Source: Escherichia phage KS_A3. Taken from it: DNA of 58,418 nucleotides. Every line of letters begins with the position of its first letter. Position 1 is the stretch's first letter. Shown piece after piece: positions 31,754-53,588 of this stretch. The notes under the pieces were generated by a model that saw nothing but the letters and a program-made list of their open reading frames with translations, searched no databases and was not told where the DNA came from. The translations under genes and the position numbers were made by a program. The stretch lies in the sequence record PP627278.1, one strand, 5' to 3'.

Positions 31754-32008
31754 TTAAACCTCCGTTAATGTTTGAGTCCAGTCTAAGCCTTCAAGATCTA
31801 CATCAGCTATTTCATCGTACTCGTAAGCTTCCGGATCTGCTGGCAACCATCTATCAAAGCGATGGCTAAGTTCTGGAGGAATTGCTTCATATCCCCAAAC
31901 CTTCCCATCCTTGTCGGCTGCCAGATAATCAACTCGACTTGGAACGGTTAAAGCGACACCACAAAAATTAACATCTTTAGTATGCACAACCTGGCTTAAC
32001 ACACGCAT
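31754..32008 (-). CDS. hypothetical protein, member of three-copy paralogous family
   Basis: 84 aa; shares AxDxDGKV...Y and W..TL.E motifs with ORFs 52708-52950 and 53292-53588. Confidence 0.45.
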   Translation of the reverse strand: MRVLSQVVHTKDVNFCGVALTVPSRVDYLAADKDGKVWGYEAIPPELSHRFDRWLPADPEAYEYDEIADVDLEGLDWTQTLTEV

Positions 32009-32715
32009 TATTCCACCCCGATATATTTGTGAACCTGAAGCTGCAACGTGTAACCGTGTTTCATACAGCTTTGGACAACGGCTTGGATATTACTGTGGTT
32101 AAGGTCTTCATCCTGCTCGTCCATTGGCTGTAAATATATCTTACCCTTGAAACCCTTCGGAGGTCTAGCGATAAATGGCGTAGCTTGATGATCTAATGCC
32201 TGAAGCGGCAAACCATCTTCCACGTTTACACAGCACGCTTTAAGTACATATTTAAATGCATTAGCGCGGCGCAGCACAGAAGGATGAATCTTTGAGGTCT
32301 TGGGACTACATACAATTACAGGTAACTGGGAAAAGTTCTTAGGTAAAGGCATAGACCCATTAGTTTCAATTTGCACCAAATACCCGCGCGATAACAGTTG
32401 TTCAATAAACGGGTTAATTTGCTGACGGAACGGTTCACCCCCAGTGATAACCACAAGTGAGGTGCTATTACCTGATTCCAGCTTACGGCTTTCGATTAAA
32501 CGCATAATATCGACAATGTGATAAAGACTACGACCAACAGTATAATCTGTATCACAGCCAGGACATTGCAGATTACACCCAGCAAGACGCACAAATACAG
32601 CAGGTTGGCCGCAGAATGGACCTTCACCTTGAATGGTAGAGAATACCGAATGCACGTCTAAATACATATCGTTTTCTTTAGAACGGGACTCGGGAGCTTG
32701 TTGATTAATATTCAT
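32008..32715 (-). CDS. queE: 7-carboxy-7-deazaguanine synthase (radical SAM)
   Basis: 235 aa; radical-SAM Cys triad CNLQCPGC; ITGGEP motif. Confidence 0.85.
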   Translation of the reverse strand: MNINQQAPESRSKENDMYLDVHSVFSTIQGEGPFCGQPAVFVRLAGCNLQCPGCDTDYTVGRSLYHIVDIMRLIESRKLESGNSTSLVVITGGEPFRQQINPFIEQLLSRGYLVQIETNGSMPLPKNFSQLPVIVCSPKTSKIHPSVLRRANAFKYVLKACCVNVEDGLPLQALDHQATPFIARPPKGFKGKIYLQPMDEQDEDLNHSNIQAVVQSCMKHGYTLQLQVHKYIGVE

Positions 32716-32730
32716 CTTAAATCCTCTAGT

Positions 32731-32760
32731 GAAAAAGAAAGCGCCTCATTGGGCGCTTTC
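32731..32760 (-). terminator. hairpin terminator/attenuator upstream of queE
   Basis: AAAGCGCC-TCATTG-GGCGCTTT followed by a U-run on the - strand; only about 16 nt before the queE start codon. Confidence 0.35.
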
Positions 32761-32784
32761 ATTATAACGTGATATGTTTTGATA

Positions 32785-33591
32785 TTACAAGCCGTTCAGG
32801 GCTTCCGGTACTGGTACAGGTACGCGACCAGTCACACCATTAAATTTCTTCCAGCGTGCATACTGGGTTTTAACGGTATCTTCGTTCAGACCATGTCGAC
32901 CAGCCAGGTTCAGAACATAAGAGATCGGAGCAGGCTGACCCAGCGTAGCGCTAATCTGGTCCATCAGAGCCCAGGCACGACCGCAGGAAGTTTCAGGTTG
33001 TGGACGACGAACACCATTCTGTTCAGGCATACGGTTCGCTTCTTTCGCTTTTTCACGTTCAGCTTTTTCGCGGGCTTTTTCAGCAGCCTTTTCAGCCTGT
33101 TTAGCAGCGCGGATCTTGTCTTTGAAGCCTTTGATAAACGAATCCAGTTCGTCAACCATGCTCTGAGCAGCACTTACTGCACCGGACAGATCTTCATCTT
33201 TGGATTTTTTAACAACTGCTTTCAGCTCTTTCAGTTTATTCTTAAAAAGCTTCAGCTGTTCAGAACCCTGAAATTCAGCTACCGTAATCTCTTCAATAGT
33301 GCCTTTATCGGCAACATCGGATAAAACAGACCTCACGGTTTCAACTCCGCGGGAAAGAGCGGTAAATTTATTTTCCGCTACAGCACGAATTTCAGCTTGT
33401 TTCTTTTCAGCGGCAGCTTTTTTCTCTGCTTCTTTTTTCTCTTTTGCTACGCGTGCAGCTTCAGCGGCAGCGGCTTTTTTAGCTTCTTTCTTTGCAGGCT
33501 TAGCAGATTTTTCAGCGGCAGCAGCGGCTGCGGCAGCAGCGGCTGCGGCAGCAGCGGCTTTCTTATCTTCAATATTACTCATTTTCTTCAC
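32785..33591 (-). CDS. lysine/alanine-rich histone H1-like protein with poly-Ala tract
   Basis: 268 aa; N-terminal run of 15 Ala then KAAK/EKKA repeats, globular C-terminal domain. Confidence 0.55.
   Translation of the reverse strand: MKKMSNIEDKKAAAAAAAAAAAAAAAEKSAKPAKKEAKKAAAAEAARVAKEKKEAEKKAAAEKKQAEIRAVAENKFTALSRGVETVRSVLSDVADKGTIEEITVAEFQGSEQLKLFKNKLKELKAVVKKSKDEDLSGAVSAAQSMVDELDSFIKGFKDKIRAAKQAEKAAEKAREKAEREKAKEANRMPEQNGVRRPQPETSCGRAWALMDQISATLGQPAPISYVLNLAGRHGLNEDTVKTQYARWKKFNGVTGRVPVPVPEALNGL
33515..33559. repeat. perfect 3x tandem 15-mer (GCGGCAGCAGCGGCT) encoding poly-Ala
   Basis: three identical 15-nt units read directly in the sequence. Confidence 0.9.
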
Positions 33592-33709
33592 TCCGAATTA
33601 TTATGGGTTCGTTTGTTACCAACGGGGTTAAATGTACCAAAGGATTTTGTGACACGCAACCCCTTACATAAACATTTTTAAAAATATTTTTGATCAGGGT
33701 TAGAACTTA

Positions 33710-34204
33710 TTAGCTCTTCGCACCTCTGCCCGGTGTCCATGCTGCTTGCAATGCGGGTTGCTCACAAATGACCCTGGCACCGGAAATAATACCACCCTCC
33801 CGTTCAGCATCGTATTTGACACGGGCAGGTTTCCAAAGTCCTTCATCCATTGACGGTACATATTGCCCAAGTTGAGGCGAGCAAAAGCCCTGGATATCAT
33901 ATTCCACACAGAATTCGGCTTGTGCGCTAATTTGGGCGTGATCCAGGAGTGTTTCTGGAAGTTGCGTAAAGTAATCAGACAAAATGCGCTCAACGATTTC
34001 CCGTTCATAAGGTGCAGCTCCTAAATTTTCTGTCAAGTTAATATAAAGCATTTGTAGATCAACATCTTCAAGATCGTGTAAATCGTCTACTGGTGTTACC
34101 AGTGTTGACTCCGGACAACAAATAATTCCAAGTTGGTGTAGTGTCAGCCAATTGGGATGCTTTGCCAAGAGTTCAAATTTATCTGTATCAATTAGGACGT
34201 ACAT
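33710..34204 (-). CDS. hypothetical protein
   Basis: 164 aa acidic ORF. Confidence 0.4.
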   Translation of the reverse strand: MYVLIDTDKFELLAKHPNWLTLHQLGIICCPESTLVTPVDDLHDLEDVDLQMLYINLTENLGAAPYEREIVERILSDYFTQLPETLLDHAQISAQAEFCVEYDIQGFCSPQLGQYVPSMDEGLWKPARVKYDAEREGGIISGARVICEQPALQAAWTPGRGAKS

Positions 34205-34263
34205 TGCAATCCCCTATAAATAAGTAATGCCCCAATAGTAGGAGCATTAGATGTCGAAGTCAA

Positions 34264-36249
34264 TTAGAACGGAACGTAATCCGGATCTTCTACTTGTACA
34301 GGGTTAACCACATTGTTCACCGTTATACCTTGCGTATTCTGTGAAACAATATCATCCCAGCTCACATCATCATTATAGCTTGGCCCTTCTGTTGTTCCAT
34401 CCTGCCCGTATACTTTAACCTGAATAGCTTCGTCGTCGTCCTGTGGTGCTTCAAACTTACCGAAACACGTACCATCATAATCATAGTTCAATATCTCAGG
34501 CCATTTCTTATTGGTATGAACTTTGATGTATTTCGGCGTTTTGAGCATTGCAGCAACATCAAGAGCTTCTTCAATGGTTTGTGGTAAAGGAAGATGCGTC
34601 CTTTTCTTCCACCATGCAACCGCTATACGACCTGCCCAGTCACCGTGAAGTAGAGCTACCCATTCGCTGAATATTTTACTACCGCAATAATAAGTCACCT
34701 TCATTGTTGGAGGTTTGGAGCTATCATTGCGTTTAGTGTGCTTCGCATAAGTCACATGCGTAACTTTGAAGTCTTCAACTACCGGAATGTCCTGTTTGAT
34801 CAGTGCTTCGGTACTTGCTGCCTTTTTAAGTTTCGTCTGGAACTTAAACTCATGACCGCAAAATCCTTCTTTAACATAATCCGTTCCACGTAGTCTGAAT
34901 CCCTTCAAATATAATTGTTGAGCTTGTTCCTGTGTAACGCTGTCCATAGGAATTGGTGCAAAGCCACCGCAATAGCGAGCAGATGCATGATTATACGACC
35001 CGCACACATCGCATTCTTTAACCGGAGCAGTACCAGCACCTTTTTTGCCCGGACGCTTGGGTTTAACAGGGTCGTTAATAGGGCCCAAACGGCGCGTATT
35101 ACCGCTGAAATCCAGTACAAGGCAGTTCTGCTTAGGACTTGCTGCAATAGCTTGCAAGCGGCCTTCCTGCGTGGAAAGATCAAAGCCTTCCGCGTATACC
35201 GGACGCGTACCGCGACCTAGCATCTGAACCCATAGCACCGCCGACGCAGTGGGGCGAAGCATGATAATCAGATCAAGCATTGGATGGTCAAAACCTGTGG
35301 TTAAGACGTTGTTGTTCGTCAGCGCTCGAAACTCTCCACGCTTGAACTTTTCAATAATTTCGTCACGCTCTTTTGCATCAAGCTTTGAGTGAATACATCC
35401 GCAACTAATACCCATATCGTTCAGCATATCGCACGCATCTTTAGCGTGTTCAATACCCGAACAAAATATAAGCCAACTTTGACGGTCTTCACCACATTCA
35501 ATGGCTTCCTCAAGTGCGCGAAGTGTTGCATCGTCGCGGTTCACCGCACTTTGCAGCTCACTCTGAATAAACTCACCACCGCGTTTGCCCACCCCATTGA
35601 GGTCCAGTTCCATCTTTGTACGCTTTGGCACAACCGGAAGCAAATAGCCTTGCTCCAGGAACCAGTTAAAGGCTTCAGGGGTAGTTGCATCAAACGTTAC
35701 TTTATCAAATAAAGCATCATCGTCTTTGTTTTCCTTAACAATTGAGCCGTAACCCAGTCGGTAAGGTGTAGCGGTAAGACCGATAATTTTTAAATACGGG
35801 TTAACTTCACGCAATGCTGCAAAGAACTTCTTATACATTGTTGCATCACGCGGACTAATAAGGTGCGCTTCATCCACAAAGATTAGATCAACCTTGCCAA
35901 ACTTTTTAGGATGCTTAGCAACAGATGCAATCCCCGCAAATGTGATAAGATTATAAACTTCTTTACGCTTCAAACCTGCGCTGTAAATACCTGCTGGCGC
36001 TTCAGGCCAGACTTTCATTAATTTATCATAGTTTTGCGCGATCAACTCTTTGACGTGAGTTAACATCATTACGCGCTGGTTTGGATACCATTTATAAAGC
36101 AGATCGAGGAACCCCGCGATAACGAGCGATTTTCCTGTCCCTGTTGGTAACAGGATCAAAGGGTTCCCCGCGTTACCCTTTTCAGCATCAAAATAGCGGA
36201 ATACGCTATAAACTGCTTCCTGTTGATAATCGCGGAGCTGCATAATCAA
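34264..36249 (-). CDS. SF2 DEAD/DEAH-box DNA helicase
   Basis: 661 aa; Walker A LLPTGTGKS, DEAH box FVDEAH; C-terminal Cys-containing segment. Confidence 0.75.
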   Translation of the reverse strand: MIMQLRDYQQEAVYSVFRYFDAEKGNAGNPLILLPTGTGKSLVIAGFLDLLYKWYPNQRVMMLTHVKELIAQNYDKLMKVWPEAPAGIYSAGLKRKEVYNLITFAGIASVAKHPKKFGKVDLIFVDEAHLISPRDATMYKKFFAALREVNPYLKIIGLTATPYRLGYGSIVKENKDDDALFDKVTFDATTPEAFNWFLEQGYLLPVVPKRTKMELDLNGVGKRGGEFIQSELQSAVNRDDATLRALEEAIECGEDRQSWLIFCSGIEHAKDACDMLNDMGISCGCIHSKLDAKERDEIIEKFKRGEFRALTNNNVLTTGFDHPMLDLIIMLRPTASAVLWVQMLGRGTRPVYAEGFDLSTQEGRLQAIAASPKQNCLVLDFSGNTRRLGPINDPVKPKRPGKKGAGTAPVKECDVCGSYNHASARYCGGFAPIPMDSVTQEQAQQLYLKGFRLRGTDYVKEGFCGHEFKFQTKLKKAASTEALIKQDIPVVEDFKVTHVTYAKHTKRNDSSKPPTMKVTYYCGSKIFSEWVALLHGDWAGRIAVAWWKKRTHLPLPQTIEEALDVAAMLKTPKYIKVHTNKKWPEILNYDYDGTCFGKFEAPQDDDEAIQVKVYGQDGTTEGPSYNDDVSWDDIVSQNTQGITVNNVVNPVQVEDPDYVPF

Positions 36250-37154
36250 TCTTTCCCGTAATAGTTAGCTACTTGATAGTTTTGACAACCCACTTTTTGA
36301 CCCTGAGTATCTACTGCAACGGAATGGAAATTGCAATACCATGTTCCATCATCTTTTGGCTCAAGAAATTGACATGTGCGACAGTTTACTTCCGGCATAG
36401 TTTTACGCCAGCACAATGAGGAGTGGTCACACCATTTACATTCGAAGAATGTAGAGTCTTTAAAAGCACGGTCAGGAATATCCGTAGCAATAGCAATCTG
36501 CACACCACGATCAATATACATGTCCGCAGTGACCGGATCAAATGGAATAATTTCTGCGTAAACTTCATCATCGTTCTTGTTTACAGCAAGATATAACGCT
36601 GCGCCAAGTCCAAGCTTTCGCATATACACGTTCATCTGCACATAGTGCTCAGGTTTAGCTTCTTTGACACCTTTAGCTTTCAGCTTCTTGAAAGACTTAT
36701 CATTATGGGTCTTCATTTCAGTAAGCACAGGCATTCCAGGCTGCACGTCCGGACAACCTATAACCACACCATCACAGGAACCGCCAAAGTGTCCACCCGC
36801 TTCACTGATACGGAACTGGTGTCCGTTTTCATCCTGCTGGTAGACTTGCATACCTGCCGCAAGAAGCATAGCAATGAAACGCGCTTCTTCCAGATGTCCG
36901 CGGTTAAATAAGCGGAGCTGGCGTCCATCGAACTCTTTACGCGTAGCCCAGCGATATCCGTAGAACAGCTTGCGAGCACATTGCTGTCCAATAAGGGAAG
37001 CGCCTAAGTGACTGCGATTTCCGCTTTCAGGACGATATGCGTCTTCAATTGTGGGAATGACTACGCCGAGATATTTACGGTAAGTCCCACCCTGATCTTT
37101 TTGCACACCGTCATTGATTGCTTGAAGTGTTTTTTCTGCAATATAAATAGCCAT
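36246..37154 (-). CDS. PD-(D/E)XK family nuclease (RecB/Cas4-like exonuclease)
   Basis: 302 aa; EMK and YVQMNVYM motifs plus C-terminal Cys cluster. Confidence 0.45.
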   Translation of the reverse strand: MAIYIAEKTLQAINDGVQKDQGGTYRKYLGVVIPTIEDAYRPESGNRSHLGASLIGQQCARKLFYGYRWATRKEFDGRQLRLFNRGHLEEARFIAMLLAAGMQVYQQDENGHQFRISEAGGHFGGSCDGVVIGCPDVQPGMPVLTEMKTHNDKSFKKLKAKGVKEAKPEHYVQMNVYMRKLGLGAALYLAVNKNDDEVYAEIIPFDPVTADMYIDRGVQIAIATDIPDRAFKDSTFFECKWCDHSSLCWRKTMPEVNCRTCQFLEPKDDGTWYCNFHSVAVDTQGQKVGCQNYQVANYYGKD

Positions 37155-37176
37155 TGGAGTACCTTAGAAAAATAAG

Positions 37177-37203
37177 CCGTCTTTCGACGGCTTAGGGACA
37201 CTA
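37177..37203 (-). terminator. hairpin terminator
   Basis: AGCCGTC-TTTC-GACGGCT followed by a U-run on the - strand. Confidence 0.4.
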
Positions 37204-37219
37204 CAGAGGGAGGGTTAAC

Positions 37220-38104
37220 TTACTGCTGCCACGGCGGGACTGCTGCTTGTGCCGGATGGGGTTCAGCTTGCTGCTGTGGCTGCGCTTGCTGTTGCGGTGC
37301 CGCTGCCTGGCCCGGCTGCGCTACCTGCTGCGCCCACGGTTGCTGAGCTGCTTCCGGTGCTACTGGCTGTTGTACCGGAGCTTGCTGAACTGGCTGCTGT
37401 GGCGCTGCGTTTTGAGCAGGGTTATCCCACGGCTGCGGTGCTGCGTTCTGCCACGGTTGAGCTGCTGCGACCTGCTGCGGTGCTGGTTGCTGCTGCACAG
37501 GCTGCTGAACTGTCTGCTGTTGCTGTACCGGAGCTTGCTGCTGTACAGGCGCTTGCTGTTGCTGAGCAAACGGGTTAGCTGCTGGCTGCTGTGGCGCTGC
37601 GCCCGGGAAAGTCGGTTGCTGTGCTGGCGCACCTGCACCAAACGGGTTAGCTACTGCTGGAGCACCCATTGATGGAGCCTCTGCTGCTTTTTCTGCATAT
37701 TTAACCGGATCGTTGATGTTAGCGTAACCGTTAGGCTCGTTGCTGTCTTCATAACCTTCCTGAGAACGAACTTTCAGACGCAGGTTCAGCGGAATGTTAT
37801 GCAGCTGAGCAGGGGTATCCCAGCGAATTACACCAACCGCATGGGACAGAGCACCCAGTTGCTCGTAAGCGATGCGTACAGTATCTTCGTTGTCGTTAAT
37901 GACGTTATAACGAGCAAAGATTTTACGACCTTTAGCAAAACCGTCAATGATGCTAAACGTTACCTGGATCGCCATACCGCCATTTTTGGTCGGTTTAAAT
38001 TCAGATGCTTCAATTACTGCTTTATACCAACCTTTCGGCAATGCGCCGTAAGAAGGTGCTTGATAGCTGCTCGCGTCAAAGTGGAAATTAGTTGGCATAG
38101 TCAT
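37220..38104 (-). CDS. putative ssDNA-binding protein with Q/P/A-rich disordered C-terminal tail
   Basis: 294 aa; about 135-aa globular N-terminus then about 160 aa of PQQ/AQQ low complexity; directly downstream of the Sak4-like ATPase. Confidence 0.4.
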   Translation of the reverse strand: MTMPTNFHFDASSYQAPSYGALPKGWYKAVIEASEFKPTKNGGMAIQVTFSIIDGFAKGRKIFARYNVINDNEDTVRIAYEQLGALSHAVGVIRWDTPAQLHNIPLNLRLKVRSQEGYEDSNEPNGYANINDPVKYAEKAAEAPSMGAPAVANPFGAGAPAQQPTFPGAAPQQPAANPFAQQQQAPVQQQAPVQQQQTVQQPVQQQPAPQQVAAAQPWQNAAPQPWDNPAQNAAPQQPVQQAPVQQPVAPEAAQQPWAQQVAQPGQAAAPQQQAQPQQQAEPHPAQAAVPPWQQ

Positions 38105-38832
38105 TAGTTGATACCTTTCATTTTGTTGATAACAGAACCTAAGTGTGGGACTTCAACCGCATCTAAACGTCCCGAACGATCCTTAGCGATTGTATTAAAG
38201 TCCGGTTGAGTTTGCAAGTAACGATATGAGTTACCTTGCTGATCTTTATTTACATTCAGACGAAATACTTCGTCGAAGAAATAAGGGAGCATTTGTCCCA
38301 ATTTGGACCCAGGCATAGATGGAGCATACGCGGTAACACCGGAGACTTCATCTTTGTCTTTGCCCATTTTAGCAGACATATAAACATGTTTGCCAGGGAT
38401 ATCGCGAAATTTACGGATCAGATCTTGCATCTTTTCAAGCAAAGTACCATAAGCTTGACGAGGATCTTTTGTTCCTTTTTTCGCATTGTTTAAACATTGT
38501 TCAGCAATTTCGCTCAAGCTGTCAAGCGCAATAGAATCGAAATACTGCTGGTTAGCTGGAGTTACACACCACTGATAAGCAGCTTCAACGTCCTCCAGAC
38601 ATTTAACTTCGATAACAGGAATGTCATAAACGATCGGCAATCCCATGTTACCATAAACGCGATTAAGGTTTTCCGCTGCAATAGATAACAGACCGGACTC
38701 TGCGCTGATCAAAATTGGTTTAGGTAGTGTGGCTACAAGGCTGGTTTTACCCATACCCGCTTCACCGTAAACCAGAATTTTAACGCCTGTGTCTTGCACT
38801 ACTTGTGAAGACATTTTAATTTCAATGGCCAT
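38104..38832 (-). CDS. RecA-like ATPase (Sak4-type recombination protein)
   Basis: 242 aa; Walker A GEAGMGKTS. Confidence 0.6.
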   Translation of the reverse strand: MAIEIKMSSQVVQDTGVKILVYGEAGMGKTSLVATLPKPILISAESGLLSIAAENLNRVYGNMGLPIVYDIPVIEVKCLEDVEAAYQWCVTPANQQYFDSIALDSLSEIAEQCLNNAKKGTKDPRQAYGTLLEKMQDLIRKFRDIPGKHVYMSAKMGKDKDEVSGVTAYAPSMPGSKLGQMLPYFFDEVFRLNVNKDQQGNSYRYLQTQPDFNTIAKDRSGRLDAVEVPHLGSVINKMKGIN

Positions 38833-38897
38833 TTAACGCCTCTCTTTTAAGTTCGTGCTCATTGTAACGTAATATACTTTGAACCCTCAATTACTTT

Positions 38898-39818
38898 TTA
38901 ATCTAAAGCCTGATCAGTTTCATCGCGGAAATGCATAAAGTTAGCAAAACGCGGTTTATCTTTAACGCCATGAGGGAAGTGCTTATATGAAATAGTCCGA
39001 CCTTTAATCTTGTCAGGATTATTCCAATAATAGATCTTATCCTCTTGCGTTAGTTTACCAGGACTAACGTTGATTGTATTGCCCGTCTTAACGTCTTTAC
39101 AAACAAGCGTCCCGACCATACCGTTAGGAACTTTATTTTCCTGATGTGAAGATCGTGTAGTCCTGCCCAGCTCGTTAACAGTAGCTTCATTAAGGTTAGT
39201 TTCACCCTCAATAATATCGAGGACAATAGCGTCTTCCTGAATAAAGCGTTTAATACGAAGATATCCACCTTCTCGAACTGTACCGCGCCCATGCTTGTAA
39301 GGCTTGTTTGGATCACGGATAATAATACCTTCATAACCCATATCAAGCCAGATGTTTTCCCAGTAGAGTAACTCTTCTAAAGACTTAACCACATACATCG
39401 GCACAACTTGCAGGTCGAGCAGTTCACCTTTCGCGTGCTGTGTGGTTATAAAATCTTTCATCATGTTGTAGCGTGCTTCATAGCCCAGCTCTGCAACACT
39501 TTCCGCGCACAGATCAAAGATGTGCCATTTCAGGAACGGTTCGCCTTCAATTGTGTTTACCGCACTGGTTGTTTTACGGCACAGATCCGGGTCCGTTTCA
39601 ACTCCTGCTGCAAGCTCGCCGTCATAGCCCATGTATTGAGGACCGCTGAAAATTGCGCTTGTATGGCGGTTTTTAAACAGCTTTAAGCTGCGCCCTACTA
39701 TTTGCCCATCCGGATTTAAACCGCGTACACCGTCGATTTTAGGCAGTATGCAGCACGGAAACTTAATCTTTTCTTCAACCGCGTCAGTCGCTAAATGTGG
39801 TTTAAATACCATTTGCAC
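38898..39818 (-). CDS. ATP-dependent DNA ligase
   Basis: 306 aa; adenylation motif I KIDGVRG; EGIIIR motif. Confidence 0.75.
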   Translation of the reverse strand: MQMVFKPHLATDAVEEKIKFPCCILPKIDGVRGLNPDGQIVGRSLKLFKNRHTSAIFSGPQYMGYDGELAAGVETDPDLCRKTTSAVNTIEGEPFLKWHIFDLCAESVAELGYEARYNMMKDFITTQHAKGELLDLQVVPMYVVKSLEELLYWENIWLDMGYEGIIIRDPNKPYKHGRGTVREGGYLRIKRFIQEDAIVLDIIEGETNLNEATVNELGRTTRSSHQENKVPNGMVGTLVCKDVKTGNTINVSPGKLTQEDKIYYWNNPDKIKGRTISYKHFPHGVKDKPRFANFMHFRDETDQALD

Positions 39819-40464
39819 CTCTATTCATAAAAGAATGTACGAATTTTAATTTACGAATACGCTCATCGCGTTCTGCAACAGCTTTATCGTCTTCTGAACG
39901 AGCAGCCAAACAAACTTTCTCTTTCATACGGATATTACGACGTAAATGTCCGCTACCCTTTTTAGGTCTGTTTTCCTTTTTCTTTGCTTCGGAAATAAGC
40001 TCTTTGCACTCCTGCAAACGGATCTTGCTTCTTTCCAATCGCATAGCAGAACGCGCACGTTCATTACAAAATCTTTGAGCTTTGCTACGCTGGTCCTGAT
40101 TACTTGTATGACCTTTAACGTGGCGAAACTCAATAGTAAGGTTATATTTACGAAGTTGATCGTTCAACCATTTGAAAGCTGTACCTTCCTGTTCGCTTTT
40201 CCAGCTTGCCTCTTTATACACTTTAATAGCAGTTGAACAATCTGTTTGGACGATTAGATGATCACCCGATTGAATTAAATTAGCTTTCAATCCTTCCCAA
40301 ATGACATTACAAATTGCCATCGTTTCGGCTGCATTGTTATCCGGAGCACCGCGTAATGGACCACCGTTAGCATTATTTCCACGGTTACAAACTACCCATC
40401 CGCCATAGCCTGCGGCTTTTGTATTTGGGCAAAAACTTGCATCAGAAATAATTGTTACTCTCAT
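39802..40464 (-). CDS. ribonuclease H
   Basis: 220 aa; IISDASF, NAAE, QTDC, HVKGH...NERAR pattern resembling RNase HI; basic C-terminal tail. Confidence 0.6.
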   Translation of the reverse strand: MRVTIISDASFCPNTKAAGYGGWVVCNRGNNANGGPLRGAPDNNAAETMAICNVIWEGLKANLIQSGDHLIVQTDCSTAIKVYKEASWKSEQEGTAFKWLNDQLRKYNLTIEFRHVKGHTSNQDQRSKAQRFCNERARSAMRLERSKIRLQECKELISEAKKKENRPKKGSGHLRRNIRMKEKVCLAARSEDDKAVAERDERIRKLKFVHSFMNRGANGI

Positions 40465-45290: not shown

Positions 45291-47627
45291 CTCTTCTCCT
45301 AAGTTTGCCATAATACCTTCAACATCTTGCGTAATGCGCCAAGCTGCGCCAGTGAATCCCAGTTTGATAGTCTCCTCCCGTGTTACCGGAACAAGAGCAC
45401 CCATAGCAACCATTTCCTTGATCGTAGACTCGATCGCTGCGGACAATCCGTGGTGATAGTTTTTAAACGCGGACTTACTTGCAAGACGAGTAGTAATATC
45501 ACCCCGCGTGATAATGCCTTCCTTACGCAGATCTACACGTTTAACTTTCACCCAATCTTTAGTTAGATAATTCACACAAACCTGGCACATAGTACGGATA
45601 CGAGCTTCGTCATTAGTACCGATACCCCCACTATGCCATTCCTTCATAATGATATCCTGTCCATGACGCACAAAGTCCAAGGCCCATTGAACATGATAGG
45701 TCTGCACAACCGGATTGATCCAGTTTTCTCCCACAGCTAGCAGGGCGGATAGACGTAATACCTTCAGGTGCGCACGGTTCCAGGGCTGACGGATTGCTTC
45801 GTCTTTGGTTGCGTTAATATTACGGTCACATTCGTCGTTAAACTGATCACATAATGCTTCCGCATCCGGGCTAAACTGCACTTCAATACTTTGATGCTTT
45901 GCCATTGCGACTAAGGTGTGGTTAACAAGATGGCACACCATATCCCGCAAATGCTGATCCATTGTAGTCTGCTGGTTCTTGTTTAAAGGTGGTCGATCCC
46001 CTTCATAGCGGACAACATGGAAACGGGATAAGAAACCATCCTCCATCATTTCACGCGTCAACGCTTCAAAAAACGTGTCCGGTGTCGTTTCGCCCATGAT
46101 GCTATAGGCTACACCTTGTTGAGCTTCCGTATTATTAGCCTTATCAGAATAAGACATACCACCGACAATAGACATCTGACCGGACTTTTGATAAACATCG
46201 GTAAGGTCGTTCTTGAAGCTTTGCATCGGTGAACCTGCTGGCGCCGTTGCCATCGCTTTAATAATCTTACCAAACTCACCATTCAAGTTGATAAAAGATT
46301 GTTTGTCCGCAAAAGATTTACGCAGTGCGGAGCCGGAAGCACATCGGTCAAAAGATACAAAGCTATGAATCTGCGGAAACGGTTCCTGAAGCTGGCTAAC
46401 TATATTAGATAAGCCACTGTTCAACGTTTCTTTACCAACACCAGAACGGGCAATAAGGACGAAATATCCATTAAGACCGGATTGAGGAATCTGCCAAACC
46501 TTCCCGCATACGCCAGCCATAAATCCTAGTGCTGTCACAATAGAAATTTCTTTCACTGGCCGGACGGATGCTTTGTAGATGTACTTCGCAAGCTCCCCAG
46601 CAAGTCCCGGCGGCCAGTCAATAGCGGTTGCATCAATAGATGTACTTTCTGCAACTACTGTCTGCCCCTGTGTTGTTTCAACAGTTACGGGCATTTCCGC
46701 TACCTGCTGCATTGCACTGTGTGCCGCTTGCATACGGGCAGCATAATCCCGCGCCAGCGCCGCTACGTTTTCCTGGGCAATGCGCTCACGCTCCATACGA
46801 CCGCGGCACATGCGCAAACAACGGTCAATATGAACATTGTTCTTATTAGCCTTCTCACGTTTGCCCAGTGCACTGTAACGGAACAGACGGCGACATTGCT
46901 CATTACTTTCTGTGTAGAATGCATACATAGAAATAAGAGCAAGATCTGCTTCAGACTGGGAAGGGAATCCCATTTCAACCCATTCGCCATTGAATAGGCG
47001 TGCATACTTGTCCCCGTTGTCCGCTTCAAGTGCACGCTGGTGAATAGTTGCATCGTCTTCTACCGGATCTTTTTCTACCAGTTCAATTTCATATGTCTTG
47101 CGCTGAAGATCAATTTCATTCACAAGCATAGTAAGGTAATGATCACGTTCTGCAACTGGTTTGTTGTAGACGGGATTGCCCGTGCAGATAATAAAACGCT
47201 CCTGACTATAAACCTCGACACCATCACGTCGACGACCTTTACCGATGTTACCTCTTAACCACAGGTGAACACCCAAGCCTGAGCGGCTCACTTCGGTGTA
47301 AGTATCGAACGCAGTCATGATCTGTTCGAAGCGGCGCAACTGCTCCGGCGTCGTGTGCTTCTTGGGATCTGGTTCATTGGTTGCATTCTTCACATCCAGG
47401 TCGATGCAGGTGAACGGGTCTTGTGCAGTAAGCACAAAGCCAATATAAGGTTTATTGAAATGAGCGGCGCAACCTTTGGCAGCTTCAAACGTCATAAGCA
47501 TATCCGGATCGGTAACGTCCGCCGTCATCAAACGTCCAATATCGCTATCCCATACCAACGGCTTTTTATCCGCATCGGCGACCGCCCATTGTGGGAAAGC
47601 TTTAATTTCAGCGGGAAACAGTTCCAT
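45285..47627 (-). CDS. DNA primase (archaeo-eukaryotic primase / prim-pol type) with C-terminal NTPase-like domain
   Basis: 780 aa; AEP motifs CIDLDVK and SRSGLGVHLW; downstream P-loop-like ARSGVGKET. Confidence 0.6.
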   Translation of the reverse strand: MELFPAEIKAFPQWAVADADKKPLVWDSDIGRLMTADVTDPDMLMTFEAAKGCAAHFNKPYIGFVLTAQDPFTCIDLDVKNATNEPDPKKHTTPEQLRRFEQIMTAFDTYTEVSRSGLGVHLWLRGNIGKGRRRDGVEVYSQERFIICTGNPVYNKPVAERDHYLTMLVNEIDLQRKTYEIELVEKDPVEDDATIHQRALEADNGDKYARLFNGEWVEMGFPSQSEADLALISMYAFYTESNEQCRRLFRYSALGKREKANKNNVHIDRCLRMCRGRMERERIAQENVAALARDYAARMQAAHSAMQQVAEMPVTVETTQGQTVVAESTSIDATAIDWPPGLAGELAKYIYKASVRPVKEISIVTALGFMAGVCGKVWQIPQSGLNGYFVLIARSGVGKETLNSGLSNIVSQLQEPFPQIHSFVSFDRCASGSALRKSFADKQSFINLNGEFGKIIKAMATAPAGSPMQSFKNDLTDVYQKSGQMSIVGGMSYSDKANNTEAQQGVAYSIMGETTPDTFFEALTREMMEDGFLSRFHVVRYEGDRPPLNKNQQTTMDQHLRDMVCHLVNHTLVAMAKHQSIEVQFSPDAEALCDQFNDECDRNINATKDEAIRQPWNRAHLKVLRLSALLAVGENWINPVVQTYHVQWALDFVRHGQDIIMKEWHSGGIGTNDEARIRTMCQVCVNYLTKDWVKVKRVDLRKEGIITRGDITTRLASKSAFKNYHHGLSAAIESTIKEMVAMGALVPVTREETIKLGFTGAAWRITQDVEGIMANLGEEE

Positions 47628-47638
47628 GATTTATCCTT

Positions 47639-47854
47639 TTACTGAGAACTAACCATTGCACAACCGATGGCAGCAAATAAGTGCTTCTTAGTCTCGTTGA
47701 TCACTTTCTCTGCATCCAGATAGCTCTCATAATGTCCAAGGTAAATAATAGTCCCTGCAACCATAATATAAGCTGTGCGGTAATGCATATAATGCCCAAT
47801 GAACCATCCCTGCTCCCGAAGCTTATTTTGTCCAACTTCACTAAGTACCATCAT
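47639..47854 (-). CDS. hypothetical protein
   Basis: 71 aa ORF. Confidence 0.4.
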   Translation of the reverse strand: MMVLSEVGQNKLREQGWFIGHYMHYRTAYIMVAGTIIYLGHYESYLDAEKVINETKKHLFAAIGCAMVSSQ

Positions 47855-48054
47855 GACCTCCGACGCTTATCGCCTTGCATCTTTTCCAGGGCGGGCACTG
47901 CTAAGGAACGTTTGTAGATGTACTGGTTAGCAATTCTGATAGCGCCCGGAATGCTGTCACGTATGCGCGACATCTTAAACTTAGATATACCATAACGGTC
48001 TTCAATTTCCGCCGCCGTTATGTAGTTCAAATCAAATTCTGATTCGTGATCCAT
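47851..48054 (-). CDS. hypothetical protein
   Basis: start at ATG 48054 with strong SD GGAGGG (track start 48108). Confidence 0.4.
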   Translation of the reverse strand: MDHESEFDLNYITAAEIEDRYGISKFKMSRIRDSIPGAIRIANQYIYKRSLAVPALEKMQGDKRRRS

Positions 48055-48119
48055 AATACCCTCCGTTACAACCGTCCACACAATACACAGTAAAGTCTTA
48101 CTTTGCAACTATTTTTGCA

Positions 48120-48848
48120 TTATTGCGGAGTTGTGATAATATGGTTACCAACTTCTAACATAACGTCCTGCGGCTCCCTTCCCTGTCTTAAGCTAATGAG
48201 CCAATTATCAATATTAGGAAGAATATTTTTAGCCTGCTCAGAATCCCTGTAGAGTGCAAGGTCTACCCATTGAGCCCCAAGCTTCACACGGATAGCGGTA
48301 GCGGTTTCGTAATGGTGCAGGGAACACGTAGGCCAGCGACCACGATTATCCCAGTCCTGGATATCGCCGCTCCGGCGCATTCTGTACCAACGATGGGTTA
48401 GTTTATCCATTTCCTTATCCGTCAGAGCATCCCCTTTAAGTAACGCTTGGCGCTGTATCCAGGCCTTAAGCTCGGCGTTTTGCTTGCGCCCGGTTTTACC
48501 CTTATCTACTTTTACCTTAAGTGCTTCCTCATAGGGATCGTTACCCTTGCCCATGTGGTAATTGAATTTGCCCGTATAGCTGCGAAGCTCTTTGGCGTCC
48601 AGTTCATGTCCCAGCTTATCGCTCACCCATGCAAGAAAAGCCGCACGCTCTGCATCCAGCTTACCCGCTTTTTGTCTTACCGCTTTTTTAACTGGTTGCT
48701 CCACATCTTCGTTGAAGTAATCCTCCACCATAGCAAGCGCCTGAGCCTTAGTGGGCACGCCCCGTAACCGCGAGCACGCTTGCACGACCCAGGCAGCAAA
48801 GCACAAATCCTTAACCACAGTTTTAGATGTAATAGTTTCTTCGCTCAT
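48120..48848 (-). CDS. hypothetical protein (first gene downstream of AT-rich iteron region)
   Basis: 242 aa, SD AGGAGG. Confidence 0.5.
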   Translation of the reverse strand: MSEETITSKTVVKDLCFAAWVVQACSRLRGVPTKAQALAMVEDYFNEDVEQPVKKAVRQKAGKLDAERAAFLAWVSDKLGHELDAKELRSYTGKFNYHMGKGNDPYEEALKVKVDKGKTGRKQNAELKAWIQRQALLKGDALTDKEMDKLTHRWYRMRRSGDIQDWDNRGRWPTCSLHHYETATAIRVKLGAQWVDLALYRDSEQAKNILPNIDNWLISLRQGREPQDVMLEVGNHIITTPQ

Positions 48849-48859
48849 AAATCCTCCTA

Positions 48860-49150
48860 GTGAACTGGTAATGCCACTATAAAACAGCTATTAGCTATTT
48901 GCAAGAATTGTTTTAATATAGTGCTTAGTGGCGTACATAGTGGGCAAAGCGTGTATAGTACGCCGTTACTGGCTTTGTAAAAGTTTGCCACTATAAACCA
49001 CTATCCCACTATTCACTAATTTTTTATTTTTACACAGAGCAAAGTTTATAAGTTTACGGTTTTCCCCTTATTACCCCGTTTTCAAACAAAGAATTAGTAG
49101 TAGTAGTGAAAACGTGTAAATGCCACTATCACTACTATACTATTAATTAT
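48860..49150. repeat. iteron-like array of CCACTAT motifs in both orientations
   Basis: about ten copies of CCACTAT or its complement ATAGTGG clustered at 48872-49145. Confidence 0.6.
48876..48904 (-). promoter_or_regulatory. candidate sigma70-like promoter
   Basis: on - strand TTGCAA, 17-nt spacer, TATAGT; about 25 nt upstream of the 48848 start codon. Confidence 0.35.
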
Positions 49151-49517
49151 CTGAAAAAAGTTGGGAGTATACCCCTATAAACTTATAAACTTTCAGTCAA
49201 CTAACTAAAATAAACCTAATTAAACTAATATTAATAATAACTATAAATATATATAAAATAAGGATTTATTATTATTGTATATAGTACCTATTGGTATTAT
49301 GTGATGAGTTTATAGTCATTAAATAAACTCTATAAATTTTAATAAACCTGAACGGATGCAGATCAAAAACGAGAAGTCAAGTGCTTTTGAGGGAAATTTA
49401 TTGAACTATTGTAATCGGAAGGTATATCAAGCTATAATGCGCTTAATCGCGGGATATTGGAGGAGGACTTTATTGCGCGGTTAACCGGACCAGTAGGAGG
49501 GCTGGCCCGGAAGTAGT

Positions 49518-49844
49518 TTAGAGCTGTACAGGTGTGAAGTGGGCTAGCGTATCGTCGGACATAACACCCGACAGTTTTTCGCTTACCCATTCGGACCAAA
49601 TACTATCCGGTTCCTGGCGGTGTACAAACCAGATCTCGGATGTGCCTTCTTTGCGCATCGGTTGCACTTCTGCAAGGAACTTGTCCTGCATAAGGCGGGT
49701 GAAGCAGACGCTGGTCATTGGAACCGGCTTTTCGTCCTTATTGTAATAAGGGATTAATATTTTATTCCCGAAGTTGCCAACTTCATAAACTGTTCCTTTG
49801 CGAAGCCCTCTGATGTCTGTGTAAGAGCGGATGAACGTTTTCAT
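49518..49844 (-). CDS. hypothetical protein
   Basis: 108 aa ORF with SD AGGAG. Confidence 0.45.
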   Translation of the reverse strand: MKTFIRSYTDIRGLRKGTVYEVGNFGNKILIPYYNKDEKPVPMTSVCFTRLMQDKFLAEVQPMRKEGTSEIWFVHRQEPDSIWSEWVSEKLSGVMSDDTLAHFTPVQL

Positions 49845-49894
49845 GTTTACTCCTAGGGCTCCCGCAGAAGCCCGTTGGTTGATGTGGTTATAGA

Positions 49895-50377
49895 TTATGC
49901 GTCCAGTCCGTGGTTGGCGTGAAATTTGTAATGCTCTTCCGCTTGTTTACGGGCCTGTTTTGCGTCCTCTATAGTATCATATAAACCTAGATACTTTTTC
50001 AATCCGTTTATTTGAATGTAAGCCTGAAATTTACATGCCTTTTTATTAAAGTAAACTCCTGTTACTCCGGTAGAGTTATTTATTGCCCTGCTAAGATTTT
50101 TACTATTATCGCTTGGCAACACTAAGCGCAAATTCTCTATGCGGTCGTCCCATGTACAATGATTAATATGGTCTATTTGATGCCCTTCCGGTATCGGGCC
50201 TTTATGCAACTCCCATACTAACCTTGAACGACGATATAGTTTTCCCTTGTATCCTATCAGGATGTATCCGCGCTTATTTGGTACACCAGCTTTACTACCG
50301 ATAGAAATCTGTTTAGCTGGTTTTATTTTCCAAAATAATTCTCCGTTTTGATAGCTGAAGATATTATTTAAGTCCAT
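49895..50377 (-). CDS. HNH homing endonuclease with AP2-like DNA-binding domain
   Basis: 160 aa; IDHINHCTWDDRIENL HNH motif; GVTGVYFNKK...YLGLYDTIEDA AP2-like segment. Confidence 0.65.
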   Translation of the reverse strand: MDLNNIFSYQNGELFWKIKPAKQISIGSKAGVPNKRGYILIGYKGKLYRRSRLVWELHKGPIPEGHQIDHINHCTWDDRIENLRLVLPSDNSKNLSRAINNSTGVTGVYFNKKACKFQAYIQINGLKKYLGLYDTIEDAKQARKQAEEHYKFHANHGLDA

Positions 50378-50975
50378 GATAAGTTCTCCAAGCGTAGAAC
50401 TGAATGGCGACCGTTGTCCCGTTGTAAGAAGGCATTGCAGCTTTCATTTCTTTCAGCTCCGGCGTGCGGCCCAGTTCGGCTAAAAGTTTATCGCCCATTG
50501 CCCACACTTCGGCGGTTTTTCCTTTCAGAGGCTTGCGAGCGCCATTTTTGAAATCGCAGCGAGCAGCTTTTGCATCCTGTTTTGGCGCGGCAGCTTTTGG
50601 CTCTTCAATTTTGATCTCAGAAACCTGCGTGGCAGCTTTTGCGTGTTTCATATCTTTCTCTTCCTCCTGCTCCAGAGCTTCGAGGCAGCTTTTGACGATT
50701 TCCGGATTTACCATCGGGCGCAGTACCGAGACGCTGGCAGCTGGCGCGGCGGTTGGTGCTGGGACTTTCTGCTCCGGCTGTTGCGCTTTTTTATGGTCGC
50801 GCAGTACCTGAAGCACTTCCTTCTCGACGATGTAAAAACCAATCTCATCCTGATGGATTAACTGCTCGTGTGCGTCGCGTGCAACCTGGCCCCAGCGGGT
50901 CTTAAGGGCGCGGCGTGCATTCGTTTTCATGGTGTAACGCATTTTGTCCTGTTCGCGGTGAGTTACTTTAGACAT
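50364..50975 (-). CDS. hypothetical protein
   Basis: 203 aa, SD AAGGAG. Confidence 0.45.
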   Translation of the reverse strand: MSKVTHREQDKMRYTMKTNARRALKTRWGQVARDAHEQLIHQDEIGFYIVEKEVLQVLRDHKKAQQPEQKVPAPTAAPAASVSVLRPMVNPEIVKSCLEALEQEEEKDMKHAKAATQVSEIKIEEPKAAAPKQDAKAARCDFKNGARKPLKGKTAEVWAMGDKLLAELGRTPELKEMKAAMPSYNGTTVAIQFYAWRTYHGLK

Positions 50976-51054
50976 GGTATAGCTCCTTTAGTTATCTTGC
51001 TTAAGTAGGTTTATTATAACAGACTGTGTTTCAGTCTGTTAGATATAAATCAAC

Positions 51055-51279
51055 TTATTTAACCATCAAGGCCCATCTTTTATAGCCGTTCAGCTCCAGT
51101 CTATGACCGTGATCGTTGCAATAACGTTGGATATTATTAAAGTCGTTATCATTCATATCGCTAACATCAATATTAAAATAGTTGCGCTTTGCAGCTGTAA
51201 CGTATTGGGACAATTGTATTGAGTACAGATGTTCAATGTTGTCGATAATAGCTTGCTGAACTTTAGTGATAGTAGCCAT
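51055..51279 (-). CDS. hypothetical protein
   Basis: 74 aa; preceded on - strand by an A8-G9 homopolymer pair acting as SD. Confidence 0.4.
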   Translation of the reverse strand: MATITKVQQAIIDNIEHLYSIQLSQYVTAAKRNYFNIDVSDMNDNDFNNIQRYCNDHGHRLELNGYKRWALMVK

Positions 51280-51286
51280 GATGCAA

Positions 51287-51303
51287 CCCCCCCCCTTTTT
51301 TTT
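51287..51303. repeat. C9-T8 homopolymer tract
   Basis: CCCCCCCCCTTTTTTTT read directly; 7 nt upstream of the - strand ATG. Confidence 0.9.
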
Positions 51304-51532
51304 ATGTGGTTAAGCAGTATTTCTTTGTTGAAGTAATAATAGTCTTGCATCGTGATATTAAATAGGCCAAAAGTGCTCTTTTAGAATTGTTTTGCATCTA
51401 GTGAAAAATACGCTTGCCCTGCATGTTTAGCACTAAGGGCCTAACTAACATCACATCATCTGGAGTATTCGCGCAGGTGTACACATACATATAAAGCTGC
51501 CAAATATTTTTATAAAAAGATGCAAAAAGGTG

Positions 51533-51561
51533 TAGACACATGATCGGTCTAGCACTACTAT
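51533..51561 (+). promoter_or_regulatory. candidate promoter for + strand late/accessory block
   Basis: TAGACA, 17-nt spacer, TACTAT, about 45 nt upstream of the 51608 start. Confidence 0.3.
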
Positions 51562-51607
51562 ATACATACCGCAAGGTGCTACAAATTAACTTAAAGGGGT
51601 CTACATC

Positions 51608-51892
51608 ATGTCCATCGTCACTATGTCGTTCTTCGACCATTGCAATAACGAAAAACAAATTATCGTGAACCTGCAAAAAGGATCTGTTGTCGCACGCAAT
51701 GCTAACCGCCAATGCATCGCGCTAACCGATTTTGCTTTCCGCCTTAACGTGGACAACACTACCGCCAAAAATATCGTTCACGATACAGCGTTGGAAGCTG
51801 CTCACGCTGCGAAGGATAAAGGTATCCGCGACGCACGCAAAATCATGCACAAGGCGCTCGGCATCACGTTCTTCGTTGGGATTAAGGGGTAA
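51608..51892 (+). CDS. hypothetical protein
   Basis: 94 aa ORF with SD. Confidence 0.45.
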   Translation: MSIVTMSFFDHCNNEKQIIVNLQKGSVVARNANRQCIALTDFAFRLNVDNTTAKNIVHDTALEAAHAAKDKGIRDARKIMHKALGITFFVGIKG

Positions 51893-51897
51893 CTACT

Positions 51898-52038
51898 ATG
51901 TCACGCAAATACACGCTTACACGCGCACAGCACGCGTTATTATTGCAGGTTATGCGCGCAGAATATGCAGTTCATGGCTGGCATAGTGCCATGATGCGCG
52001 GTAAAAGCATATATGCGGACATGCGCTCGCAAGGATAA
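51898..52038 (+). CDS. hypothetical small protein (46 aa)
   Basis: below track cutoff; SD AAGGGG; basic (MSRKYTLTRAQHALLLQVMRAEYAVHGWHSAMMRGKSIYADMRSQG). Confidence 0.3.
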   Translation: MSRKYTLTRAQHALLLQVMRAEYAVHGWHSAMMRGKSIYADMRSQG

Positions 52039-52465
52039 CGCACACAGCAGCACCACAGCGAGCTAATGTACATAGGTAATGGTAATGCATTAGCTCGGGC
52101 GAAACAGGCGCACAGCGTCGCACACAGCTCGCACAGCGCACACAGACCCACGCAGGCCCAGCCGCGCGACCCGACCCACCCTTTTCCAGGTACTTGGATC
52201 GCTGGGGCGTGCCCTGTCTATCCTGATAGTAAGTCCTTGCCTAAATCTCACCTGTCACATCCCTGTCCGCCTACATCCATGACCCCACCTACCTTCTTTT
52301 TGAATATATTGCGCTCATCCTTTCTAAATATATGGATTTTGGTAGTAAATTCTGAGTCGTCAACGTATAATTCGTCTTGTAGCTGCTCCATAGCTATCAT
52401 CTTTAAGCGGATGCAACCAATTTCTATCAGTTCACACCTGTTTTTAGAGCATCGAGGAGGTATTT

Positions 52466-52717
52466 ATGTGCGACTCCAGTGCAAGCGCTGCACCCAGCAC
52501 CTCCAGCAATGTGGTTACAGAGGTAAATGCAATGCGATTAGGCCCATATCGCGGGTATTATGGTCGGGCAGCATGGAATGACGCTACTCAACGTTTTGAA
52601 GGCTGGATTATCTGTCCGGAACGTGTTAAATTTCACTCCGTAAAAGAGAAAAATATCGTTCTTAATTTTCAAAAATGTGTCACTAAATATGTAGAGGAGC
52701 AAGAAGAATGCGTGTAA
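52466..52717 (+). CDS. hypothetical protein
   Basis: 83 aa, strong SD GAGGAGG. Confidence 0.5.
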   Translation: MCDSSASAAPSTSSNVVTEVNAMRLGPYRGYYGRAAWNDATQRFEGWIICPERVKFHSVKEKNIVLNFQKCVTKYVEEQEECV

Positions 52718-52950
52718 AAGACGAGCAAAAGACAGTTGACTACTTCGGAATGCAAATTGTTGTTCCGGAATGGGTTAAATGGCTTGCTGTCGATGGTGAC
52801 GGTAAATTATTCGGTTATGAATGTGAGCCCGACATTTTAGTTAATGAAGATTGGGATGAATGGTACAGTGAAGAAGGTAAATGCCGCTGCATTACAGAAG
52901 TCATCCTTGAAGAAGAACATTGGTCACAAACCTTAGTGGAGCTTTTTTAA
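52708..52950 (+). CDS. hypothetical protein, paralogous family member
   Basis: 80 aa; VPEWVKWLAVDGDGKLFGYE...WSQTLVEL. Confidence 0.5.
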   Translation: MRVKDEQKTVDYFGMQIVVPEWVKWLAVDGDGKLFGYECEPDILVNEDWDEWYSEEGKCRCITEVILEEEHWSQTLVELF

Positions 52951-53240
52951 TGCACGTAGAAGATATTGTTGAAGGTAAAGAGTATCGTTTACTGACCGAT
53001 ATTGGTGGTGTCGGATATACTCCGGATGATGCAGCTTGTTTTAATGTCCTTCCGCAAGGTGCTATCGTGACAGTTAACAAGGTCGTTACCGATTTATACA
53101 GTGTTCATGACGGCAGATGGCCACATGCAGTTATTGTTACCTTCGGTAAAGATGGTTATGTGGACCTTGATGGCGAAGACGATACTTACGAAGTTGCTTA
53201 TACAGGTCTGGTAAGCCCCAATTTCCTGGAAGAAGTATAA
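52950..53240 (+). CDS. hypothetical protein
   Basis: ATG at 52950 overlaps upstream stop (TAATG); track start 52920 is over-extended. Confidence 0.45.
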   Translation: MHVEDIVEGKEYRLLTDIGGVGYTPDDAACFNVLPQGAIVTVNKVVTDLYSVHDGRWPHAVIVTFGKDGYVDLDGEDDTYEVAYTGLVSPNFLEEV

Positions 53241-53291
53241 TTATCAATCTATAATGGGCTCTACGGAGCCCTTAATTATCTGGAGATTGTT

Positions 53292-53588
53292 ATGCTGTAT
53301 TTAGGAATGGACGAAACTGGACACGCGATTCCTTCTGTTAACAAGGAGACGCAAGTATTTACCGACTATTACGGGTCTGCTATCCCTGTAGAGCCCTGGG
53401 CTAACTTTATCGCTGTAGATGCAGATGGTAAAGTTCATTGTTATGACGGCAAACCTTCTTGCTATCAATCTGGTAAGCAATGGATGCTTGGCGTATACGG
53501 TTTGCAGGTCCGCTACTGCGGCGAAGTTGACATTGAAGGTGTGGACTGGCGCGATACGTTGAAGGAGATTAAAGATGTCCGCGGCTGA
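53292..53588 (+). CDS. hypothetical protein, paralogous family member
   Basis: 98 aa; VEPWANFIAVDADGKVHCYD...WRDTLKEI. Confidence 0.5.
   Translation: MLYLGMDETGHAIPSVNKETQVFTDYYGSAIPVEPWANFIAVDADGKVHCYDGKPSCYQSGKQWMLGVYGLQVRYCGEVDIEGVDWRDTLKEIKDVRG

Follow-up and report, generated by a model that had tools for sequence, protein, structure and literature searches.

In the 58,418-nucleotide stretch of Escherichia phage KS_A3 considered here (PP627278.1, called the window below) lie three short open reading frames (ORFs) that encode small acidic proteins, designated p1, p2 and p3 (Table 1). An original prediction, made from the letters of the sequence, had singled them out as a paralogous family split between two gene blocks, and all three ORFs are present exactly where it placed them. 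Bases 30000-36000 of the window have 100% identity with Escherichia phage KS_S4 (PP627282.1; Queuovirinae, Seuratvirus), in whose record p1, p2 and p3 are annotated as hypothetical proteins CDS0043, CDS0082 and CDS0084, and about 30 further Seuratvirus genomes align to the same bases at 93-95%.

Table 1. The three family members in the window and the features that adjoin them (positions in the window; pI, isoelectric point)
Feature	Coordinates	Strand	Description	Remarks
p1	31754..32008	-	84-residue family member, pI 4.28, net charge -10	phrog_1972, E 2.4e-22; optional cassette between queE and 70-residue ORF
p2	52708..52950	+	80-residue family member, pI 4.14, net charge -13	phrog_1972, E 3e-22; optional cassette between 61- and 96-residue ORFs
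p3	53292..53588	+	98-residue family member, pI 4.67, net charge -6, extra N-terminal strand	phrog_1972, E 5.4e-27; conserved copy
queE	32008..32715	-	7-carboxy-7-deazaguanine synthase, immediately upstream of p1	98-100% identical in Seuratviruses whether p1 is present or not
70-residue ORF	31541..31753	-	phrog_26258, downstream of p1	directly after queE in p1-less phages
queC	30826..31548	-	last gene of the queE-p1-orf70-queC run	
96-residue ORF	52950..53240	+	phrog_27099, between p2 and p3; not a family member	hhalign 17.6%, no HMM match
GC-rich hairpin	53256..53271	+	6 pairs, weak T tail, just upstream of p3	consensus match only

That the three proteins form one homologous family is well borne out. 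BLASTP aligns p1 with p2 over their full length (E 6e-13, 36% identity) and gives E 3e-9 for p1-p3 and E 2e-9 for p2-p3, with identities among the three of about 30-36%. Smith-Waterman scores of 111, 87 and 96 (p1-p2, p1-p3 and p2-p3, respectively) compare with a mean of about 26 (standard deviation about 4.8) for shuffled sequences, corresponding to z values of 17.5, 13.2 and 14.0; none of 2000 shuffles matched a real score, so that the alignments stand far above the shuffled controls against which the original prediction proposed to be judged. All three also match the same profile, PHROG 1972, across the whole domain (profile positions about 7-108 of 160), with weaker matches to PHROGs 26007, 23941, 11307, 21375, 15430 and 19703, every one of them labelled 'unknown function'. 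Taken with the wider survey described below, p1, p2 and p3 are very probably anciently diverged members of a large family of acidic, all-beta phage domains of about 75 residues.

The common motif layout claimed for them (a hydrophobic-P-x-W element, a block beginning AVD, an acidic stretch and a C-terminal W-(S/T) motif) stands for the most part and fails in particulars. In p1 the first element reads VPSRV, with no W after the P; in p3 the last reads DWRDTL, with R in place of S/T, and is followed by 5 further residues rather than ending the protein; and the acidic stretch, clear in p1 and p2, is only weakly developed in p3. When the whole family is considered, p1 and p3 hold every conserved element, while p2 retains the G, A-x-D-x-x-G, P, W and W-x-x-T-L-x-E elements and has VILEE (in VILEEEH) replacing the strongly conserved VDLEG (of VDLEGxD). 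Searches of all six frames of the window with hidden Markov models (HMMs) built from these 3 sequences and from 138 family sequences revealed no fourth copy. The ORF between p2 and p3 was considered as a candidate and rejected, as it has only a local VDLDGED motif in common with the family (see also its scores in Table 1).

An exhaustive profile search of 1.84 billion representative sequences returned 1,716 proteins at E <= 1e-3, of which 350 reach E <= 1e-10; this puts the size of the family at about 1,700 clusters at 50% identity. A few giant MBG-repeat proteins among the profile matches were set aside as an artefact of summed short partial stretches: none passes the per-domain threshold in a local search, the one called P0067 scores through many short stretches at profile positions of about 8-41, and p1-p3 themselves have no match to Pfam MBG_2. 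The family occurs in 86 phage records, from siphoviruses, myoviruses and jumbo phages, and every member whose source was seen lies on phage or phage-sized sequence. A search for the motif VDLEGMDW found 8 viral loci and 1 genome locus; the scan for that exact motif in 185,579 bacterial and archaeal species genomes (one per species) gave a single relative, on a 17-kb contig of a metagenome-assembled genome, which is weak evidence, the exact-motif scan being narrow, that the family may be rare in bacterial chromosomes and prophages. Outside the Queuovirinae, members lie in runs of small unknown genes or, in the Pectobacterium jumbo phage CBB, adjoin NAD-salvage genes. There (L023:9813-12237) CBB_364 is just downstream of the genes for nicotinamide-nucleotide adenylyltransferase and the PnuC transporter of nicotinamide mononucleotide, another copy adjoining an auxiliary metabolic module.

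The family has been delineated already by PHROGs and is otherwise undescribed. PHROG 1972 is an automatically built phage family that has no name, structure or function, and the domain limits, conserved motif, tandem arrays, acidity and cassette behavior reported here are absent from the annotation of it that we found. At the curated cut-offs, Pfam and NCBIfam give no match for p1-p3 and no recurrent match in 37 members, and Rfam gives nothing relevant. Our literature search found no paper mentioning PHROG 1972 and no anti-defence data for p1-p3. We are thus dealing with a large family, spread across many unrelated virulent phages, that lacks a Pfam entry, a solved structure and an assigned function.

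AlphaFold2, supplied with the family alignment, predicts confident folds for both p3 (mean predicted local distance difference test score, pLDDT, 92.4; predicted template modeling score 0.83; 8 strands) and p1 (pLDDT 92.4; 7 strands), the two models having the same order of 7 core strands and a short C-terminal helical turn. A fold search of BFVD matched, at E < 1e-3, 22 uncharacterized proteins of rV5-like, T4-like, jumbo and Nonagvirus phages; fold and sequence searches of the PDB found no solved structural relative. In an alignment of 138 single-domain members, the G of FFG, the A-x-D-x-x-G element, the P, the W and the C-terminal V-D-L-E-G-x-D-W-x-x-T-L-x-E motif are conserved at 86-99%, and between the conserved P and the C-terminal motif lies a variable segment with many acidic residues. 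The median pI of the family is 4.6, and 76% of members have a pI below 5.

Single proteins of about 80 residues make up most of the family; in other members the domain is concatenated in one polypeptide, in 2-8 copies. The 17 scanned family proteins that are longer than one domain contain no supra-threshold Pfam domain, their non-family regions being unannotated, and fusion partners were therefore dropped as a possible clue to function. Two 8-copy arrays are carried by a 62,351-bp phage-like contig (JAWVGY010000536.1, of GCA_040384185.1; L014:7620-12871), where adjacent proteins of 794 and 678 residues have 8 domain copies each. Two single-domain ORFs come next, so that 5 kb hold about 18 domains; the same contig has a VapE-like primase and a weak match to glycoside hydrolase family 19. 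A tblastn search of GenBank phages with the 8-domain protein found no match.

The original prediction took the presence of three copies in one small genome as a sign of paralogue expansion, and this part of it does not hold. In a BLASTP ranking of the approximately 180 family members collected, the in-genome paralogues of each copy rank only 50th to 148th, so that each of p1, p2 and p3 is nearer to dozens of proteins on other contigs than to its companions in the window. With identities as low as those given above, the three represent three old lineages of a widespread phage family rather than a lineage-specific burst. In close relatives, copy number at the two loci examined varies between one, as in CAjan and SA126VB, and three, as in KS_S4 and Seurat. 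The copy always retained is p3, found in all 4 of the Seuratvirus loci examined and 87-97% identical in CAjan, SA126VB and Seurat; its further relatives, at 41-55% identity, are mostly on contigs of about 60 kb.

Nor could the division of the copies between "early" and "late" blocks be sustained, as timing is not assignable from the sequence. The genome is organized in three arms: structural genes, rightward, at 0-21.7 kb; replication, nucleotide-metabolism and deazaguanine genes, leftward, at 21.8-51.6 kb; and a rightward arm from about 51.6 kb, which opens with numerous small unknown ORFs and has the endolysin and holin genes at its far end. Both p2 and p3 are near the start of this third arm: about 1.1-1.7 kb separate them from the divergent region at about 51.5 kb, and the endolysin gene lies about 3.2 kb downstream of them. 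Scans for sigma-70-like promoters and for terminators gave matches no commoner than in shuffled sequence, and our search of the literature found no transcriptome for this phage group.

One copy, p1, was correctly described as lying within the deazaguanine operon beside queE. Its start overlaps the queE stop by 1 nucleotide, its stop abuts the start of the 70-residue ORF, and that ORF in turn overlaps queC, which places p1 inside a tightly coupled queE-p1-orf70-queC run. The slot directly after queE is also filled in Nonagvirus phage ChristophMerian and in an IMG/VR Seuratvirus contig. Three phages, CAjan, SHIN8 and SA126VB, lack p1 and have queE followed directly by the 70-residue ORF, with the flanking QueE, orf70 and QueC proteins 93-100% identical, and alignment of the DNA reveals a clean presence or absence of 255 bp at a TAATG junction. 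In SLUR25 the slot is occupied by an allele only 49% identical to p1, between QueE, orf70 and QueC proteins that are 97-99% identical; the Nonagvirus allele, at 54%, is closer to p1 than this, even though the Nonagvirus QueE is only 64% identical. Such a divergent SLUR25 allele between nearly identical flanks, and a Nonagvirus allele closer than the identity of its QueE predicts, point to allele replacement by recombination at this slot. The two Seuratvirus p1 alleles are nearly identical over their first 36 or so nucleotides and converge again at the 3' end.

Much the same picture is seen at p2: Seurat has it at 79% identity, and from CAjan and SA126VB it is precisely absent. In the p2-less phages the next ORF begins with ATGCGTGTAGAAGAG, a hybrid between the start of p2, ATGCGTGTAAAAGA, and the start of that ORF in KS_S4, ATGCACGTAGAAGA, which indicates that p2 was deleted through microhomology between the two start regions. 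A 73-residue protein (P0054) encoded on a 59,876-bp contig labelled E. coli consists of the first 33 or so residues of p2 fused to the C-terminal part of the next ORF, and is apparently a deletion remnant, with loss of p2 in progress. Both p1 and p2 start with ATGCGTGT (Met-Arg-Val), as does the ORF after p2 in p2-less phages; the start-codon regions concerned lie at 52705-52725, 52948-52965 and 31995-32010 of the window. Such short shared start-codon sequences seem to be the sites of cassette gain and loss. To judge from these junctions, p1 and p2 are naturally dispensable cassettes, gained or lost precisely at start codons.

We tentatively suggest that p1-p3 are soluble, acidic binder or inhibitor proteins directed against proteins of the host, a proposal that we consider possible but short of probable; this caution applies to the mechanism and not to the identification of the family. 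The host-interaction or anti-defence role raised in the original prediction is plausible, in that it fits the gain and loss of cassettes, the replacement of alleles, the acidity and the tandem arrays. From these observations, together with the homology, predicted fold and distribution of the family, we infer the binding, the class of target and the effect. Each protein would be a soluble cytoplasmic binder, with a rigid beta core secured by the conserved G, A-x-D-x-x-G, P and W residues together with the VDLEGxDWxxTLxE motif at the C-terminus. As a recognition face, this core would display the variable, acidic stretch that runs from the conserved P to the C-terminal motif, and this face would bind a host protein and block it stoichiometrically. 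The target would most plausibly be a nucleic-acid-binding protein or a defence or toxin effector, and different copies and alleles would have different targets. A more ambitious form of the proposal, which we regard as rather doubtful, is that the family provides virulent phages with an undescribed modular inhibitor scaffold, a rigid, acidic beta core with a hypervariable face, each allele acting against a different host defence effector or toxin; its units would be shuffled as single-gene cassettes at start-codon microhomologies and at times concatenated into 'poly-inhibitor' proteins of up to 8 domains, and p1 would add a second layer, of anti-restriction or anti-defence, to the deazaguanine operon. 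If a scaffold of this sort does exist, a recurrent block of phage "dark matter" would gain an annotation, and near-isogenic natural pairs would be at hand for target finding, such as KS_S4, with p1 and p2, against CAjan or SA126VB, with neither.

Two kinds of known system invite comparison. Ocr, ArdA and Arn are DNA-mimic anti-restriction proteins that are small, strongly acidic and cytoplasmic. The likeness lies in the strong net negative charge of p1, p2 and p3 (-10, -13 and -6) and in the position of p1 within an operon whose product protects phage DNA from restriction; the difference is that p1-p3 have no sequence or fold similarity to any solved structure, so that the comparison can be one of function only. 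Immunity-protein families such as SUKH/SMI1-KNR4 reportedly form tandem 'polyimmunity' arrays, also in phages, as Zhang, Iyer and Aravind are said to have described in 2011. The immunity proteins of polymorphic toxins would thus likewise be small binder domains, variable between alleles and arrayed. Matches to immunity families were all sub-threshold, however (SMI1_KNR4 scores 19.3 bits in one array protein, below the cut-off of 25.4, and an Imm33-like match has E 0.14 in one member), and no toxin partner was seen near family members. The DNA-mimic and polyimmunity analogies may nevertheless be useful as functional leads.

The only named protein to surface, and the best PDB sequence match of the family profile, is AcrIC9, an anti-CRISPR against type I-C Cascade (PDB 8G9T, 8HJJ), which is likewise small (70-79 residues) and highly acidic; it has been reported from Rhodobacter capsulatus and is proposed to be a DNA-mimic-like binder of Cas7 (PMC10478522). 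The alignment covers the F-x-G...V...W-L..D....V-Y..E..P-E..W stretch and is not significant (E 0.084 and 0.1 over 46 residues), and the published beta-beta-alpha-beta-alpha-alpha fold differs from the all-beta models of p1 and p3. The E of 0.08, the different published fold and the lack of AcrIC9 among the fold-search matches shown argue against kinship between the two.

Several points weigh against the proposal that p1-p3 inhibit host proteins. We found no experimental or structural link to a host target, and the PDB searches gave no significant similarity to a solved anti-CRISPR, anti-restriction or sponge protein. The conservation of p3 is atypical for an accessory gene engaged in an arms race, and acidity and accessory status are generic to many small phage proteins. 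Phenotyping of the BASEL collection found the Queuovirinae to be very uniform in sensitivity and resistance profile (PMC8594841), which ties no phenotype to variation in the p1-p3 genes; among the BASEL phages, carriage of p1 or p2 is established for WildeMaa, Bas19 and Bas20 alone. Finally, the strong conservation of the C-terminal motif could equally reflect the binding of a conserved phage partner.

This last point leads to the main alternative, that the proteins are adaptors or chaperones for the phage's own proteins, acting in replication, assembly or the timing of lysis. It would account for the constancy of p3 across the Seuratvirus loci, with relatives mostly on contigs of about 60 kb, for the continuation of the p3 strand into the lysis and packaging genes, and for a near-invariant C-terminal motif, which fits a conserved phage-encoded partner. 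We nevertheless judge it unlikely: the family spans such unrelated phages (T1-like, T4-like, rV5-like, jumbo and Queuovirinae) that few specific proteins are common to all of them, the free loss of p1 and p2 is at odds with a phage-internal role, and 8-domain tandem arrays are hard to explain by one dedicated partner.

Much less probable is a role as sponges for small molecules, either immune signalling nucleotides or metabolites. Small proteins found in many virulent phages would suit such a role, as would the NAD-salvage genes beside the CBB member and the gain in binding capacity that multi-domain arrays could bring. However, the models resemble no solved structure, which takes in any solved sponge; a conserved pocket of basic or aromatic residues is not apparent, conservation falling mostly on acidic residues, Gly, Pro or Trp; and the strongly acidic surface would be unfavourable to the binding of nucleotides.

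The location of p1 raises the further possibility that it assists the dPreQ0 pathway in an accessory capacity, perhaps as a partner of the radical-SAM enzyme QueE. Its 1-nucleotide overlap with queE and its abutment on the next start make it probable that p1 is co-translated with queE, orf70 and queC, and its position after queE is kept in the ChristophMerian and IMG/VR loci noted above. Against this, CAjan, with no gene between queE and the 70-residue ORF, nevertheless bears dPreQ0 at about 32% of its G residues (PMC6884629), so that p1 is not needed for this modification; SHIN8 and SA126VB likewise lack p1 and have QueE proteins that are 98-100% identical. Furthermore, no que genes were found near p2, p3 or the members outside the Queuovirinae within the flanks examined (4-12 kb, depending on the locus), which for the latter comprised loci of Carvajevirus, T1-like Klebsiella phage Mingus_MM1 and jumbo phages and the 62-kb contig with the arrays, and there is thus no co-distribution with que genes outside the Queuovirinae. 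A required role of p1 in the pathway is largely refuted, and an accessory one seems very improbable. In all probability p1 is carried in the queE-queC transcription unit as a passenger and takes no part in deazaguanine chemistry, the link being positional only. This is a negative but useful result for the window, where the gene that adjoins queE ought not to be counted among those of the deazaguanine pathway. Least credible of all is the idea that p1-p3 are functionless or decaying passengers that persist as small and neutral sequences: p1 and p2 are indeed dispensable in nature, and the contig encoding P0054 carries a p2 remnant fused to the next ORF, but the intact ORFs of p1-p3, the confidence of the p1 and p3 models (pLDDT 92), the retention of family motifs at 86-99% in 138 diverse sequences and a family of more than 1,700 cluster representatives argue for purifying selection.

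Some smaller observations concern the surroundings of the three genes. The 70-residue ORF after p1 is labelled 'radical SAM domain-containing protein' (phrog_26258; CAjan record), yet Pfam gives no match for it, and the name may have been copied from one record to another. The offset between the window and PP627282.1 is 111 at p1 and 108 at p2, implying a net 3-base indel between the two somewhere from 36 kb to 51.4 kb, in the interval that separates two stretches of 100% identity. Upstream of p2, about 420 bp of the window (52040-52460) contain no credible gene and have no Rfam match. The GenBank feature CDS0080 (171 residues, window 52066-52581) is probably not a real gene, since its translation is of low complexity and matches nothing in Pfam or PHROG; the counterpart of window 52040-52460 in SA126VB is annotated with a terminator and a sigma-70 promoter. 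Downstream of p3, the ORF at 54417-54809 (+), annotated 'GTP-binding domain', encodes a YspA/cpYpsA-related protein of the SLOG family (PF10686, E 4.9e-18).

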